Source of the DNA: Escherichia coli
Lineage (GTDB): Bacteria; Pseudomonadota; Gammaproteobacteria; Enterobacterales; Enterobacteriaceae
NCBI RefSeq assembly: GCF_045037415.1
Contig: NZ_CP173438.1
Reading direction: 5' to 3' (one strand)
DNA length: 64,000 nucleotides
Of this stretch, positions 56,784-62,393 are shown piece after piece. Under the pieces are notes generated by a model, which saw only the letters and a program-made list of their open reading frames with translations, did no database searches and was not told the DNA's origin. The position numbers and the translations under genes were made by a program. Numbering within the stretch: position 1 is the first letter of the stretch; each line of letters begins with the position of its first letter.

Positions 56784-57354
56784 GCCATTACAACTCCCGC
56801 CACCGCTTGAGGGTGATATCAGTCTCAGGACGCTGGGAAGACTGGCAGGACGGCTGGATAACATCGACCTGAGCGTACTGATGGTCTTTCTCGTCGATAT
56901 CGTCGACAGTTCCGCGCTGCCATGGCTGGGCGAGCAGTTCTCACTGTCTGGCGATGGCTGGGAGCTGGCGGAATCGGACGATGTTCGCCGCATGCTTATA
57001 AAAGCAGCCATCGAACTGCACCGGTATAAAGGGACGCCGTGGTCAATCCGGGAAGTTATCCGCCGTTTTGGCTTTGGTGAAGTGGATCTGATTGAAGGCA
57101 CAGGTCGTCTCAGTTACGACGGCAATCGCAGCTATAACGGACTGTTTGTTCATGGAGATGCAGCCGCCTGGGCAGTTTATCGCGTTATTCTGAAACAGCC
57201 CATTACTAACGATCAGGCCGCGATGCTGCGTCAGACGCTGGCTGCATTTGCACCGGCCCGCTGCCATCTGGCCAGCCTGGAGTATCAGTCTGTGGCCATT
57301 CGCTATAACAATACCGCCATCCATGATGGCAGTTATAACCACGGGAGCAGTTGA
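56776..57354 (+). CDS. Baseplate/tail protein (gpI-like)
   Basis: 192 aa; overlaps J-like stop and fibre start. Confidence 0.5.
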   Translation: MTEPLQLPPPLEGDISLRTLGRLAGRLDNIDLSVLMVFLVDIVDSSALPWLGEQFSLSGDGWELAESDDVRRMLIKAAIELHRYKGTPWSIREVIRRFGFGEVDLIEGTGRLSYDGNRSYNGLFVHGDAAAWAVYRVILKQPITNDQAAMLRQTLAAFAPARCHLASLEYQSVAIRYNNTAIHDGSYNHGSS

Positions 57355-58688
57355 TTATGGGAAACCTGAATGAAACAGAAAAGTGGGAAGAAAATATCTA
57401 TCAACTGGAGACATCAGATCCGGTTCTGGGTGGTGCAGACGGGATATCAAATCGAGCCCCCCGGCAACTGGCAAACAGGACGAAATGGCTGAAGAAGAAA
57501 ACGGAGGAAGCCGCACAGTCACTGGCTGAACACGTACGTTCCCGTAACCACCCGGACGCGACACTGACAGCTAAGGGGTTCACCCAACTGAGCAGTGCCA
57601 CCAACAGCACCTCTGAAACGCTGGCCGCCACACCAAAAGCGGTCAAGGCTGCATACGACCTGGCAGCCGGCAAGGCGCCTGCCAGCCACACTCACCCGTG
57701 GAGTCAGATAACGGGAGTGCCTGCGGCTTCACTGACGGCAAAAGGCACCGTACAACTGAGCAGCGCCACGGACAGTCAATCAGAAACTGAGGCTGCCACG
57801 CCGAAGGCGGTCAAGGCTGCATACGACCTTGCAGCCGGCAAGGCGCCCGTCAGCCACACTCACCCGTGGAGTCAGATAACGGGAGTGCCTGCTGCCTCGC
57901 TGACGGCAAAAGGCACCGTACAATTGAGCAGTGCCATCAACAGCACGTCTGAAATACTGGCCGCCACACCGAAAGCGGTCAAGGCTGCATACGATCTGGC
58001 AAACGGAAAACAACCGGCAGATGCCACGCTCACTGCTCTGGCAGGACTTGCCACTGCAGCAGATCGGTTGCCTTATTTTACCGGAGCAGACCGCGCAGAG
58101 CTGGCAACCCTTACAGCTATTGGTCGCGCTATTATCGCTAAGGGCAGTATAAAAGATGTCCTCAATTACCTTGGTTTAGGAGAAGGCTCGGCGCTACCCG
58201 TTGGTGTGCCTGTTCCGTGGCCCACCGCCACACCGCCAGCAGGCTGGTTAAAGTGCGACGGGCGCGCCTTTACAAAAGAACAATATCCTGTTCTGGCCAG
58301 AGTCTACCCGACCCTCCGTCTTCCCGATTTACGCGGTGAGTTTATCCGTGGATGGGACGACGGGCGCAAAGTTGATACAGGACGTAAGTTGCTGTCCGCA
58401 CAAGGGGCAACGCTGTTAAGAACAGCAATGCTGGATTATTATAACCAGGACACTACGGGAACCTCGGGGATAGTCGGCATGGGATTCAACAATGAAGATT
58501 CCATTACAGACCTTCGTGAGGGCAGCTTTAAAATGCCGGACGGGACAACATTCAGCGATCCTGTCGTGGCAATGTCAGACAATGGTATGCAGGCTACTAT
58601 TCTGACCTCTATCAGAAGCGGGTATGCGAAGGGTATCACTGTCAGACCCCGTAGCATTGCACTTAATTACATTGTGAGGGCAGTTTAA
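57351..58688 (+). CDS. Tail fibre protein (constant N-terminal part fused to variable C-terminal cassette 1)
   Basis: 445 aa; three tandem fibre repeats (TAKG.QLSSAT.S.SE..AATPKAVKAAYDLA.GK); C-terminal part homologous to the two inverted cassettes. Confidence 0.8.
   Translation: MIMGNLNETEKWEENIYQLETSDPVLGGADGISNRAPRQLANRTKWLKKKTEEAAQSLAEHVRSRNHPDATLTAKGFTQLSSATNSTSETLAATPKAVKAAYDLAAGKAPASHTHPWSQITGVPAASLTAKGTVQLSSATDSQSETEAATPKAVKAAYDLAAGKAPVSHTHPWSQITGVPAASLTAKGTVQLSSAINSTSEILAATPKAVKAAYDLANGKQPADATLTALAGLATAADRLPYFTGADRAELATLTAIGRAIIAKGSIKDVLNYLGLGEGSALPVGVPVPWPTATPPAGWLKCDGRAFTKEQYPVLARVYPTLRLPDLRGEFIRGWDDGRKVDTGRKLLSAQGATLLRTAMLDYYNQDTTGTSGIVGMGFNNEDSITDLREGSFKMPDGTTFSDPVVAMSDNGMQATILTSIRSGYAKGITVRPRSIALNYIVRAV
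57561..58005 (+). repeat. Three tandem copies of about 50-aa tail-fibre repeat
   Basis: Protein-level repeat seen directly in the translation. Confidence 0.7.
58160..58185. other. Candidate invertase crossover site 1 (gix/hix-like)
   Basis: TCCTCAATTACC-TT-GGTTTAGGAGAA; right half-site complement TTCTCCTAAACC resembles Gin/Hin half-site TTCCTGTAAACC; at constant/variable junction of fibre gene. Confidence 0.55.
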
Positions 58689-59302
58689 TGAGTAACACTG
58701 CAGTTCTGGATGAAAACGGTATCGCCACTGTAGCGGGCGATATCACTGTATATCACTATGACGAGGAAACCCGGGAATACACCTCATCCTCTGTGGAGTA
58801 TCTCGCCCTTGGGGTGGGTACTCCGGCACATTCGTGCGCCGATGCACCGCCGGAAGCAATTTCGGGTTACGTGGTTTGCCGGACTGCCACGCTGAACGGG
58901 TGGGAGCATGTGCCTGATCACCGCGGCGAGACGGTATACAGCACGGAGAACGGTAACCCCGTTCTGATTACCCAACCGGGTGATTACCCGGCGGACACCA
59001 CCACAAAACAGCCAGCCACGCCATGGGATACCTGGAACGGTGAGGCGTGGGTAACCGATACTGAACGGCAGCGAGCCGCAGAACTGGAGGTTGCCAGACA
59101 GCAACGCCAGCAACGGGTGAAACAGGCGATGGCGTCCGTCGATCTTATCAACCTCAAACTGCGTGCTGGTCGCAGTCTGAAACCAGAAGAAACGGCAAAA
59201 CTGAACGCCGTGCTGGATTATATCGACGAGCTGAACGCACTGGATATCAGCAAGGCACCTGAAATCAGCTGGCCGGAAGCGCCACTGGCGCTTGCCGGCT
59301 GA
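58688..59302 (+). CDS. Tail fibre assembly protein (putative)
   Basis: 204 aa; ATGA-coupled to fibre stop. Confidence 0.5.
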   Translation: MSNTAVLDENGIATVAGDITVYHYDEETREYTSSSVEYLALGVGTPAHSCADAPPEAISGYVVCRTATLNGWEHVPDHRGETVYSTENGNPVLITQPGDYPADTTTKQPATPWDTWNGEAWVTDTERQRAAELEVARQQRQQRVKQAMASVDLINLKLRAGRSLKPEETAKLNAVLDYIDELNALDISKAPEISWPEAPLALAG

Positions 59303-59308
59303 ACGGTA

Positions 59309-59770
59309 TCACGCCGCCCTCACGATATAGTTAAATGCGATATTGCGGGGGCGAGCTGATACATAAGCCCACCAGTCATATCTTTGTGCACCTTTAGAGG
59401 ATGCATCAAATATCCACTTTTTGCCATTTAAGACCCCCAGTTGATTAGAGGTTAAAGCGTCACCAAATCCGTATTGTGTAGAGCCGAGCGAACTGATATC
59501 TCCGGTATCATTATCATCAAAACCGGATACGATAGTCCCTTCCTGAAATGAAAGTAGCGCACGCCCGGTATCAACCTTGCGACCACCGTCCCATCCACGG
59601 ATAAACTCACCGCGCAAATCGGGAAGACGGAGGGTCGGGTAGACTCTGACCAGAACAGGATATTGTTCTTTGGTGAACGTAGCTCCGTTGCACTGTAACC
59701 AGCCTGCTGGCGGTGTGGCGGTGGGCCATGGAACCGGTACACCAACAGGCAATGCAGAGCCTTCCCCCAA
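59309..59770 (-). CDS. Alternative tail-fibre C-terminal cassette 2 (inverted, promoterless)
   Basis: 153 aa; begins GEGSALPVGVPVPWPTATPPAGWL..., ends RPRNIAFNYIVRAA, both matching the resident fibre C-terminus; starts at crossover site 2. Confidence 0.6.
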   Translation of the reverse strand: MGEGSALPVGVPVPWPTATPPAGWLQCNGATFTKEQYPVLVRVYPTLRLPDLRGEFIRGWDGGRKVDTGRALLSFQEGTIVSGFDDNDTGDISSLGSTQYGFGDALTSNQLGVLNGKKWIFDASSKGAQRYDWWAYVSARPRNIAFNYIVRAA

Positions 59771-59787
59771 ACCAACGTTTCTATGCC
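59762..59787. other. Candidate invertase crossover site 2 (inverted relative to site 1)
   Basis: TTCCCCCAAACC-AA-CGTTTCTATGCC. Confidence 0.5.
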
Positions 59788-60209
59788 GCCCTTACGATGT
59801 AATTAAACGCAATGTTACGGGGACGAATGGTCACATAATTAACCCCATCGCCTCGCGAAGGACCTGCAAATGAAAAACGGGAGAATCCAGGTTGGTTGTC
59901 AACGATTTGGTCATAGTTATTGATTGAATGACCAGACCCAATGTCAAAATTACCTGCGTAATGAGAAAAACTTGTACCATCCTGCCGTGAAAGCAGATCG
60001 CGCCCTGTATCCACTTTTCGCCCGTCGTCCCATCCACGGATAAACTCACCGCGTAAATCGGGAAGACGGAGGGTCGGGTAGACTCTGGCCAGAACAGGAT
60101 ATTGTTCTTTTGTAAAGGCGCGCCCGTCGCACTTTAACCAGCCTGCTGGCGGTGTGGCAGTGGGCCACGGAACAGGTACACCAACGGGCAGCGCCGAGCC
60201 TTCCCCCAA
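59781..60209 (-). CDS. Alternative tail-fibre C-terminal cassette 3 (inverted, promoterless)
   Basis: 142 aa; first 70 residues nearly identical to the resident variable part; ends RPRNIAFNYIVRAA. Confidence 0.6.
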   Translation of the reverse strand: MGEGSALPVGVPVPWPTATPPAGWLKCDGRAFTKEQYPVLARVYPTLRLPDLRGEFIRGWDDGRKVDTGRDLLSRQDGTSFSHYAGNFDIGSGHSINNYDQIVDNQPGFSRFSFAGPSRGDGVNYVTIRPRNIAFNYIVRAA

Positions 60210-60227
60210 ACCAACGTTTATCTCTCA
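60202..60227. other. Candidate invertase crossover site 3 (same orientation as site 2)
   Basis: TTCCCCCAAACC-AA-CGTTTATCTCTC; immediately upstream of invertase gene. Confidence 0.5.
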
Positions 60228-60280
60228 AATCCTCCCCACATTATCTCAGTACTTTAACCACTCAAAAGGGAGTATTTTTA

Positions 60281-60853
60281 ATGCTGATTGGCTACATACG
60301 TGTGTCAACAAATGACCAAAACACAGATTTGCAACGCAATGCATTAATGTGCGCAGGATGTGAACAGATTTTTGAGGACAAAATGAGCGGAACCAAGTCG
60401 GAACGACCAGGCCTGAAACGCGCTTTAAAGTGCCTTAAAAGAGGGGATACATTGGTGGTCTGGAAGCTGGATCGGTTGGGTAGAAGAATGAAACACCTCA
60501 TTGCTCTCACAGAAGAGCTACGCGCAAAAGGTGTCAATTTTCGCAGTCTGACGGATTCAATCGATACCAGCACTCCGATGGGAAGGTTCTTTTTTCATAT
60601 GATGGGTGCACTGGCAGAAATGGAGCGTGAACTGATAGTTGAGCGCACGCTGGCTGGACTGGCTGCTGCGCGAGCACAAGGAAGAGTTGGAGGACGTCGC
60701 CCGAAACTGACGAAGGAGCAGCATGAGCAGATCGCAAGATTGCTCCAGAAAGGGTATGACAGAAAGCGGCTGGCAATTATCTATGATATTGGACTGTCAA
60801 CGATCTACCGCTATCACCCTGTTGGGACTGTCATAACGCAACCTGAAATGTAA
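60281..60853 (+). CDS. Serine-recombinase DNA invertase (Gin/Hin/Pin/Cin family)
   Basis: Within ORF 60152..60853; ATG at 60281 after SD aaaggga; N-terminal MLIGYIRVSTNDQNTDLQ with catalytic Ser; C-terminal HTH. Confidence 0.85.
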   Translation: MLIGYIRVSTNDQNTDLQRNALMCAGCEQIFEDKMSGTKSERPGLKRALKCLKRGDTLVVWKLDRLGRRMKHLIALTEELRAKGVNFRSLTDSIDTSTPMGRFFFHMMGALAEMERELIVERTLAGLAAARAQGRVGGRRPKLTKEQHEQIARLLQKGYDRKRLAIIYDIGLSTIYRYHPVGTVITQPEM

Positions 60854-60910
60854 TTCTTTTTCAAATAATGAAACGCCGCGTGGATGCCATTTATCGCACA
60901 AGATAGAGTG

Positions 60911-60931
60911 CATTTATCGCGCGGCGCATCA
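60911..60931 (-). repeat. Prophage right terminal inverted repeat (reverse complement TGATGCGCCGCGCGATAAATG)
   Basis: Ends in CA at 60931; a second GCGATAAATG-like motif at 60888..60897. Confidence 0.6.
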
Positions 60932-60937
60932 TTCTTC
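60932..60937. repeat. Right copy of target-site direct repeat (ttcttc), overlapping displaced ycaL start codon
   Basis: 60932..60939 reads ttcttcat; on minus strand this is ATG AAG AA, i.e. ycaL codons 1-3. Confidence 0.6.
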
Positions 60938-61108
60938 ATGTGAATCATCCGTTGATTAATTATATATAAACATTATGTATCAACAAGTTACATTGATAAT
61001 TAACGCTACCATTAATAAAAATACCCCACAAGGTCCGAAAAAAAACGCCGGCAATGTGCCGACGTCTTTGAAAAGAAAGGATTGTCTATGTTATCGCCCG
61101 TTATTCAT

Positions 61109-62393
61109 TCAGCCGGGTTGACTTATCCGCGCCAATTGCTCGAAATAGTCTGGAAAAGTTTTAGCGGTACATTTTGGATCAAGAATCGTCACAGGCGTAT
61201 CTGATAATGCGACCAGCGAGAAACACATCGCCATCCGGTGATCATTATAAGTGGCGATCTCAGCAAATTTCAGTTTTTCCGGTGGCGTAATGCGAATGAA
61301 ATCATGCCCCTCTTCGACTTCCGCACCGACTTTACGCAGTTCTGTTGCCATCGCAAACAGGCGATCGGTTCTCTTTAACACGCCAGTTATAGATATTGCG
61401 CAGCGTGGTGGTGCCTTTTGCAAATAACGCCGCGGTGGCAATGGTCATCGCCGCATCGGGAATATGGTTCATATCCATATCAATGGCGTTCAGTTCACCA
61501 CGCGTGCAGGAAATATAATCATCGCCCCAGCAAATGGTCGCGCCCATTTTTTCCAGAACATCAGCAAAGCGAATATCACCCTGCATACTGTTGCGTCCAA
61601 TGCCGGTCACTTTTACAGTGCCGCCTCTGATTGCTGCTGCTGCCAGGAAATAAGAAGCCGAAGATGCATCGCCTTCAACCAAATAAGTGCCCGGAGACTG
61701 GTAAGACTGCCCCCCTTTTACGACAAATTGTTGATAGTGCTGATTTTCAATTTCAACACCAAACGTCTTCATCAGATTGAGGGTGATATCGATATAAGGT
61801 TTAGAAACCAGATCGCCTTTAATACGAATCACCGTATCTTCCGGCGCAAGAGGCGCAGTCATTAACAGTGCGGTGAGGAACTGGCTGGAAACGGAGCCAT
61901 CAACATCAACGTTGCCGCCAGTAAAGCCGCCCTGTAAACGCAATGGCGGATAATTTTCTTGTTCCAGGTAAGTGATCTTCGCCCCGCCCTGGCGCAGCGC
62001 ATCCACCAGATGACCAATCGGGCGTTCTTTCATTCGCGGTTCACCGCTCAGTACAATATCATTGCTACCCAGGCAAAGTGCTGCCGCCAGCGGACGCATT
62101 GCCGTTCCGGCGTTACCGAGGAACAACTCCCGGGCACTTTCTGCGTGTAATGGACCACCGTTACCGATAATTTCGCAACGCGTACGATCGGCTGAAAGCG
62201 TATAGCTTACCCCTAACGCTGTTAATGCATTCAGCATATGGCGCACGTCATCGCTATCCAGCAGATTGGTTAATACTGTTTTGCCGTGTGCTAATGCCGC
62301 CAGCAATAAAGCGCGGTTAGAAACGCTCTTGGAACCGGGCAGATTAATAGTGCCATCGACACGAGCGATGGGTTGTAACGTTAGGGATTCCAT
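61109..62393 (-). pseudogene. aroA: aroA (EPSP synthase) with internal +1 frameshift
   Basis: N-terminal 353 codons (61332..62393) read ...NIYNWRVKE then go out of frame; AroA sequence resumes as [16 protein letters not shown]... in ORF 61109..61441. Consistent with a 1-bp insertion at the GGTT at 61367..61370. Confidence 0.75.

Follow-up and report, generated by a model that had tools for sequence, protein, structure and literature searches.

A probable three-site nested inversion switch with three tail-fibre tips and a single assembly gene in the Mu-like prophage Phi2 of Escherichia coli

We analysed a window of 64,000 nucleotides (the whole stretch of DNA under study, from the Escherichia coli contig NZ_CP173438.1 of RefSeq assembly GCF_045037415.1), and within it the tail-fibre locus of the Mu-like prophage Phi2, which at 57351-60853 consists of five features: a fibre gene, a tail-fibre assembly (Tfa) gene, two minus-strand frames that we refer to as orphan cassettes, and a plus-strand recombinase gene. 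We read this locus, with a probability of roughly 60%, as a three-site nested (Min-type) inversion switch in which the orphan cassettes are functional and the single Tfa is most likely a generalist. A serine invertase of the Gin/Cin/Pin/Min family (60281-60853) would swap strands at the TT core of three 26-bp crossover sites, each placed exactly at the start of a cassette, and inversions between sites A and B or A and C, together with follow-up inversions, would generate four isomers in which the fibre shaft (Sc, the constant 5' part of the gene) is joined to one of three C-terminal tips (Sv1, Sv2 or Sv3). As such inversions would fuse Sc to alternative tips, the orphans would be functional 3' gene segments without a start of their own, not remnants. 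Switches of this kind are known, and this locus has itself been published before; the original prediction that the cassettes are alternative 3' parts of a single fibre gene, with the neighbouring invertase as the driver, is supported by the analysis.

The window carries the fibre gene as a plus-strand Sc-Sv1 fusion (57351-58688, open-reading frame of 445 aa), made up of Sc (57357..58171, plus strand, with three Phage_fiber_2 repeats) and cassette 1 (Sv1, 58172..58688, plus strand, 169 aa counted from GEGS). Both orphans lie on the minus strand: cassette 2 (Sv2, 152 aa, 59309..59774, open frame at 59309-59770) is convergent with the Tfa gene, and cassette 3 (Sv3, 141 aa, 59781..60213, open frame at 59781-60209) occupies its own small invertible segment. 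Neither has a start of its own, because the frame is open just 6-8 codons upstream of GEGS; the room before the next feature is 6 nt after Sv2 and 10 nt after Sv3. A pattern search of the prophage fibre region found exactly three matching crossover cores. Site A (58159..58184, plus strand, TCCTCAATTACC TT GGTTTAGGAGAA, TT core at 58171-58172) is the published ‘Phi2_5prime’ (Forde et al. 2014, Table 3), and site C (60201..60226, minus strand, GAGAGATAAACG TT GGTTTGGGGGAA) is ‘Phi2_3prime’ of the same study. Site B (59762..59787, minus strand, GGCATAGAAACG TT GGTTTGGGGGAA) is absent from the two-site list of 2014, sits exactly between cassettes 2 and 3, and overlaps both the Sv3 stop and the Sv2 start. 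All three are 26-bp sites, each built of two imperfect 12-bp half-sites on either side of a 2-bp core, in inverted orientation, sharing the pattern ...AC[CG] TT GGTTT[AG]GG[AG]GAA. With one plus-strand and two minus-strand sites, four arrangements are predicted, and the third site, B, therefore makes this a nested, p15B-Min-like system with four isomers.

We denote 58172-59774 as X and 59775-60213 as Y, with a prime marking inversion. The window itself is isomer XY, which reads Sc-Sv1, Tfa, inverted Sv2 and Sv3, with Tfa on the same strand as the fibre gene. The other three isomers were found base for base in other genomes: X'Y (Sc-Sv2, then inverted Tfa, Sv1 and Sv3) in L001, Y'X (Sc-Sv3, an Sv1 fragment, Tfa on the fibre strand, and inverted Sv2) in L002, and Y'X' (Sc-Sv3, an Sv2 fragment, then inverted Tfa and Sv1) in L003. 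Synthetic sequences of the predicted junctions were searched against 5,426 complete E. coli genomes, and among the listed matches every one was perfect: the 3,503-nt window arrangement was identical over its full length in 40 of 40, the Sc-Sv2 junction matched 638 of 638 nt in 25 of 25, the Sc-Sv3 junction 605 of 605 nt in 25 of 25, the 733-nt Sv3-to-Sv1 adjacency was identical in 10 of 10, and Sv2 beside the invertase flank matched 753 of 753 nt in 60 of 60 (at least 60 perfect matches). Counted at a coverage of at least 80%, which gives bounds and no census because P1-like plasmids and relatives whose cassettes number two or four also pass at that level, the same five sequences occurred in 235, 166, 157, 185 and 242 genomes, respectively. 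All four isomers are clearly common among complete E. coli genomes, the use of site B being shown by isomers L001 and L002 and by the junction searches, and the locus thus combines more than two sites and overlapping invertible segments with more than two isomers, the hallmarks of a Min-type system.

Each fusion of Sc to a cassette is in frame, giving fibre proteins of 445 aa with Sv1 and of 428 and 417 aa with the other two, so that a constant part is joined to alternative parts lacking a start, again as in Min-type switches. In the automatic NCBI annotation of L001-L003, the fused fibre gene is labelled ‘incomplete; partial in the middle of a contig’, or broken into pseudogene pieces, in several isomers; the fused frame (428 or 417 aa) is intact in each of these mislabelled records.

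The three cassettes share long blocks of sequence at their 5' ends, as had been predicted from the sequence, and a repeat finder bears this out with 229-nt blocks at 94% and 85%. The former is an inverted repeat of 58168-58396 and 59989-60217 (94% complementary), the latter an inverted repeat of 58168-58396 and 59550-59778, and the two orphans are related by a direct repeat of 246 nt (59535-59780 and 59974-60219, 86%). The 3' ends of the cassettes form a further inverted repeat of 35 nt at 86% (58647-58681 and 59788-59822). The original prediction held that such repeats could also recombine homologously, and as a source of the isomers this did not hold up. In the window and L001-L003 the outer half-sites are fixed (TCCTCAATTACC at Sc, GGCATAGAAACG at the 3' end of Sv3 and GAGAGATAAACG at the invertase flank), whereas the inner half-sites travel with their cassettes, as do the polymorphisms particular to each cassette, which begin 6 nt past the TT core. 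Strand exchange is therefore confined to the 7-nt TTGGTTT. Exchange at the core with reciprocal hybrid sites, seen both in these half-sites and in the perfect junction matches, is the signature of a Din-family invertase, and the isomers arise by site-specific, not homologous, recombination. That RecA-dependent recombination between the 229-nt inverted repeats made the isomers without the invertase has next to no probability: the repeats would be long enough (229 nt at 85-94%), but the exchange point falls inside a 7-nt stretch at the site core in all isomers examined, the cassette-specific polymorphisms start 6 nt past the core, and junctions drawn at the core match at 100% in every listed case. 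Homologous exchange has left its mark on an evolutionary timescale, as two alleles of the collar block, KCDGRAF and QCNGATF, are spread in a mosaic over the cassette types of different prophages, and this mosaic therefore points to gene conversion between the repeats over evolutionary time.

Whether the orphans might be decaying leftovers, with disabling mutations in related genomes, had been raised with the original prediction; they are instead intact in all relatives examined, which are inserted at different chromosomal sites, and under purifying selection. Pairwise Nei-Gojobori counts on the variable parts of the cassettes gave pN/pS values of 0.15 for Sv2 (with few differences), 0.15 for Sv3 (pS 0.18) and 0.18 for Sv4 (pS 0.26). 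The P1-like phage vB_EcoM-673R5 was excluded, its cassette region being frameshifted. There is one orphan in L005, L012, L014 and Klebsiella phage KP12, two in the window, L010, L011 and L013, and three in L009; together these loci hold at least five orphan types, always with exactly one Tfa. Similarly, among 79 IMG/VR loci with a relative of cassette 2, the same layout recurs, reaching seven cassettes and one Tfa in L069, and the classical two-Tfa layout also occurs. One Tfa with 1-6 orphans is thus a recurrent arrangement in Mu-like prophages, in Klebsiella phage KP12 and in the P1-like plasmid pKY1497_2. A reading in which the orphans are decaying remnants of old cassette-plus-Tfa pairs, the resident arrangement alone being functional, could draw on the mirror-image two-Tfa layout of related switches such as that of phage SKA5, since the existence of two-Tfa relatives makes the loss of a second Tfa a plausible history. 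It is nevertheless very improbable and already contradicted by the intact frames and low pN/pS (0.15-0.18) at the loci examined, by the conservation of the layout, with as many as 7 cassettes, in E. coli, in Klebsiella and on P1-like plasmids, and by the fusions of Sc to orphans that are common in genomes.

In every single-Tfa locus, 6-7 nt separate the stop of Tfa from that of the convergent cassette (59303-59308 in the window; L005-L090 among the others). This gap is constant despite differing Tfa clusters (1, 2 and 12) and differing convergent tips (Sv2, Sv4, tip 0 and tip 19), which suggests that tips may be replaced by recombination within the conserved flanks.

At the protein level the cassettes share both ends, as the original prediction stated, and differ in between. 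A protein alignment shows a common block of about 70 residues (GEGSALPVGVPVPWP...GRKVDTGR) in which G7-R77 is nearly invariant, and all three finish RPR.IA.NYIVRA; the variable middle is 100 aa long in Sv1, vs. 83 and 72 aa in the two shorter cassettes. A profile built from 32 cassettes matches the tip of T4 gp37 (2XGF) in two separate pieces, the N-terminal block and a C-terminus ending ...NIAFNYIVRL, and also matches T4 gp12, ending ...ETRPWNISLNYIIK. A collar block and a NIAFNYIVR-type strand therefore flank a variable insert, as in tips of the T4 gp37/gp12 type. The T4 gp37 chain runs out along the needle and returns, and both of its ends pack together as the collar domain. On that reading of the T4 fold, the sequences shared at the 5' and 3' ends would form the structural scaffold, and contact with the receptor would fall to the variable middle. 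The 229 nt shared at the 5' end and the shared 3' end would thus encode those parts of a T4-gp37-type tip that are conserved in every such fibre. The conserved end codons also carry two functional signals: the crossover sites have their inner halves there, and so does Tfa its ribosome-binding site. An AlphaFold2 monomer model of cassette 2, computed from the 32-sequence alignment, had a mean pLDDT of 50.8 and was unusable, as is expected for an intertwined trimer. In Sv5, an orphan type of relatives that is also tip cluster 0 (L009 5031-5504 and L010 2507-2980), we noted His-x-His motifs (EKHRHIVV); the needle of T4 gp37 has iron-binding His-x-His pairs of the same kind.

A single assembly gene for three cassettes was also predicted and is borne out: the sole Tfa gene of the region is at 58688-59302, Sv2 and Sv3 have no Tfa of their own, and the layout is accordingly not that of the classical Mu G and P1 C switches. 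The further claim that Tfa would be inverted whenever cassette 2 or 3 is fused stands for cassette 2 but must be amended for cassette 3. Expression of cassette 2 always leaves Tfa inverted, because the two lie on the same invertible segment and are convergent. Cassette 3 has its own segment, and Tfa is co-oriented with it in one of its two isomers, Y'X (L002), where it is followed by an untranslated Sv1 fragment and then by Tfa with its own ribosome-binding site. Two isomers therefore have Tfa on the fibre strand, 3' of the fibre gene that is expressed (Sc-Sv1-Tfa, and Sc-Sv3 with the Sv1 fragment between it and Tfa), and the remaining two (X'Y and Y'X') have it inverted.

The proposal that best accommodates one Tfa and three tips is a generalist chaperone, which would most likely recognise the shared scaffold and not the variable tip, so that one copy could serve every cassette. 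Comparison across loci is in line with this. One Tfa cluster (at least 80% identical) stands directly behind 15 different tip clusters, across which the variable regions of the tips average 25.6% identity and the N-domains of Tfa 85.5%, and tip similarity is uncorrelated with Tfa N-domain similarity (r=0.06). A Tfa 89% identical to that of the window follows a tip just 32% identical to Sv1. Some tip types come with a Tfa in certain phages and as orphans elsewhere, the convergent position included: tip cluster 0 is directly linked to Tfa in 8 loci and an orphan in 12. The nearest fixed-fibre relatives of Sv2 (57% identical in the variable part; L020 and L021) and of Sv3 (60%; phage mEp043) all have a same-family Tfa behind them. 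The occurrence of closely related Tfa proteins behind very different tips suggests a generalist chaperone.

Several observations weigh against a generalist Tfa. In two common isomers Tfa is antisense to the fibre transcript, and cassette 2 never has a same-strand Tfa downstream yet is conserved, which implies that it either folds without Tfa or is supplied by another route. A promoter and terminator scan of 57000-61200, made with the sigma-70-type consensus, found nothing inside the invertible DNA and two sigma-70-like sites beyond the invertase gene; this is weak negative evidence. Sv1 directly precedes a U-type Tfa in 14 of 14 loci and is never an orphan, as would fit a specific Sv1-Tfa pair. 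In secondary accounts the N-domain of Mu Tfa is the non-conserved, fibre-binding part (PMC9608196), from which specificity and not generality would be predicted.

These same points feed a possible but rather doubtful alternative, in which Tfa is specific for cassette 1 and the shorter orphan tips (Sv2, Sv3 and their relatives) fold and trimerise without a phage chaperone. Sv1 is invariably next to this Tfa, is never an orphan and has the longest variable part; the cassette convergent with Tfa is never co-transcribed with it yet is under purifying selection, and no promoter for the inverted Tfa appeared in the consensus scan. Against such exclusivity stand the same-family Tfa genes behind the nearest fixed-fibre relatives of Sv2 and Sv3, the double life of tip cluster 0 as Tfa-linked tip and orphan, and Sv6, which is an orphan in L011 and L013 and has an Sv1-like tip. 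We regard as quite improbable a further scenario in which Tfa serves all cassettes by being expressed both ways, an unrecognised leftward promoter on the invertase side reading through the cassette fragment or fragments. It would explain the upkeep of cassette 2, and in L001 and L003 Tfa does lie on the minus strand downstream of the fixed invertase-side flank, a point of geometry alone; but the scan placed its two sigma-70-like sites beyond the invertase gene and none elsewhere in 57000-61200, and site C is just 54 nt from the invertase ATG. A generalist Tfa reading the shared scaffold remains our preferred explanation.

The orientation of Tfa might itself be phase-variable, which we think unlikely; the switch would then produce four virion phenotypes, namely Sv1 with Tfa, Sv3 with Tfa, Sv3 without Tfa and Sv2 without Tfa. 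Mu Tfa, according to secondary accounts, remains on the fibre tip and helps in receptor recognition (PMC9608196). If a Mu-like capping by Tfa held here, one tip would recognise different hosts depending on whether it is capped, and the tip of cassette 2 would by nature need no chaperone. A generalist Tfa that recognises the scaffold would also be what lets switches grow to seven minimal cassettes of ~450 bp.

The component genes are assigned by domain and family matches. The fibre protein contains three Phage_fiber_2 domains and one Collar domain (Pfam, Collar E=8e-15), and PHROG tail fibre families also match. Three 168-nt tandem units in Sc (57562-58065) each correspond to one Phage_fiber_2 unit, with identities to the first unit of 83% and 65%. 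The copy number of this repeat varies among relatives, with a shaft before the collar of 280 aa here and 380-480 aa elsewhere, and fibre length therefore varies too. Tfa is a Mu U-like protein of 204 aa encoded on the plus strand, directly 3' of the fibre gene; it matches phrog_105 ‘tail fiber assembly’ (E=3e-87), and residues 79-199 are the Pfam domain Caudo_TAP (PF02413, E=8e-27). Its ATG overlaps the stop of cassette 1 (TAATG), its ribosome-binding site (GTGAGGGC, with GAGGG 7 nt upstream of the ATG) lies within the conserved IVRA codons, and its stop is separated by 6 nt from that of cassette 2 on the opposite strand. An NCBIfam search returned no informative family for Tfa or the fibre, and a sequence search of the PDB with Tfa gave no match. 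The invertase, on the plus strand and outside the invertible DNA, is a 190 aa Din-family serine recombinase (phrog_125 ‘DNA invertase’, E=1.3e-94) with the domain pair of that family, Resolvase at residues 3-135 (E=1e-50) and HTH_7 at residues 138-180 (E=2e-12).

We take the prophage to be ~37 kb long, at about 23900-61000 between ycaL and aroA, judging from the sizes of the open-reading frames and the gene order of E. coli K-12. The 3,503-nt fibre region is 100% identical to that of many genomes of E. coli ST131, EC958 and JJ1887 among them. The isolated phage PhiKM (Bcepmuvirus) is 99.8% identical over the baseplate genes, and its record has a transposase, GemA and a Mu C-type late regulator; this record breaks at the repeat, an assembly artefact, and the packaged isomer is unreadable there. 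Close relatives are inserted at unrelated positions, near cysS, flgA, uvrD, ssuB/pepN and emrA, and beside truncated host genes (ssuB, emrA and a hydrolase gene), a scatter consistent with what Mu-type transposition would give. Beyond the prophage, aroA of the window (61109-62393) has one extra A at about 61370, GAGAACC vs. GAGACC in other ST131 records, so that the 427-codon gene is read as two frames, of 353 and 110 aa, that overlap; the strain either has a true aroA frameshift, or the base is a sequencing error.

What the analysis adds is a third site with four observed isomers, the localisation of exchange to the site core, orphans kept by selection, and the recognition of ‘one Tfa, many orphan tips’ as a widespread mobile module. 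Complete ST131 genomes differ at this locus by isomer alone, and assemblers yield spurious contigs here (PMC4134206); knowledge of the three sites and four states helps to prevent false variant calls. A single Tfa with up to six chaperone-less tips is also a natural test of whether Caudo_TAP chaperones read the scaffold or the variable tip, and the answer bears on the engineering of host range with minimal swap-in cassettes. The general picture of such switches is unchanged, and the question of chaperone supply is modest in scope.

The closest precedent is the same locus in Phi2 of EC958, where tail-fibre ‘allele switching’ was described from inversion seen in PacBio reads and alternative contigs, with two 26-bp crossover sites, corresponding to our sites A and C and matched to the published consensus, and one invertible segment of 2,067 bp (Forde et al. 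2014, PMC4134206). That account described the alternative alleles generically as a mirror image with a cognate minor fibre gene, whereas here an internal site brings the number of sites to three, with three cassettes, one Tfa and four isomers. The switches of Mu (G/Gin), P1 (C/Cin) and e14 (P/Pin) share the invertase family, 26-bp sites of the same type where Sc meets Sv, a location at the tail module's end and an invertase gene just outside the invertible DNA; they differ in having two sites, a mirror-image Sv-U / U'-Sv' arrangement and a Tfa for each variable part (as, e.g., in SKA5), while the alternative parts in the window lack one. The tips of T4 gp37 (2XGF) and gp12 resemble the cassettes as described above, but they are fixed and not switched, and they use the unrelated chaperones gp38 and gp57A in place of a Caudo_TAP-family Tfa. 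The R64 shufflon (Rci / pilV) offers a parallel in its constant 5' part, several promoterless 3' cassettes and nested inversions; unlike the window, it uses a tyrosine recombinase and serves a pilus adhesin on a conjugative plasmid.

Also close is the Min multiple-inversion system of plasmid p15B, reported by Sandmeier, Iida and Arber (1990-92) to have six sites and 240 isomers. The p15B system has a Din-family invertase, more than two sites, overlapping segments and a constant 5' part with several short 3' parts, as does the window; it differs in the number of sites and isomers, three and four here, and in its setting, a P1-like plasmid and not a Mu-like prophage. The P1-like plasmid pKY1497_2 (L097, 4500-7700) carries the same module as window positions 58172-60853, with four cassettes, four sites whose sequences are those of the window and one Tfa. 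Its Sv1 and Tfa share 99% DNA identity with those of the window, and its invertase has the same accession, WP_000904922.1. The presence of a common module in a Mu-like prophage and a P1-like phage-plasmid implies recent horizontal transfer between unrelated phage types, and pKY1497_2 would tie the switch in the window to the Min-type multiple inversion regions of P1-related plasmids.

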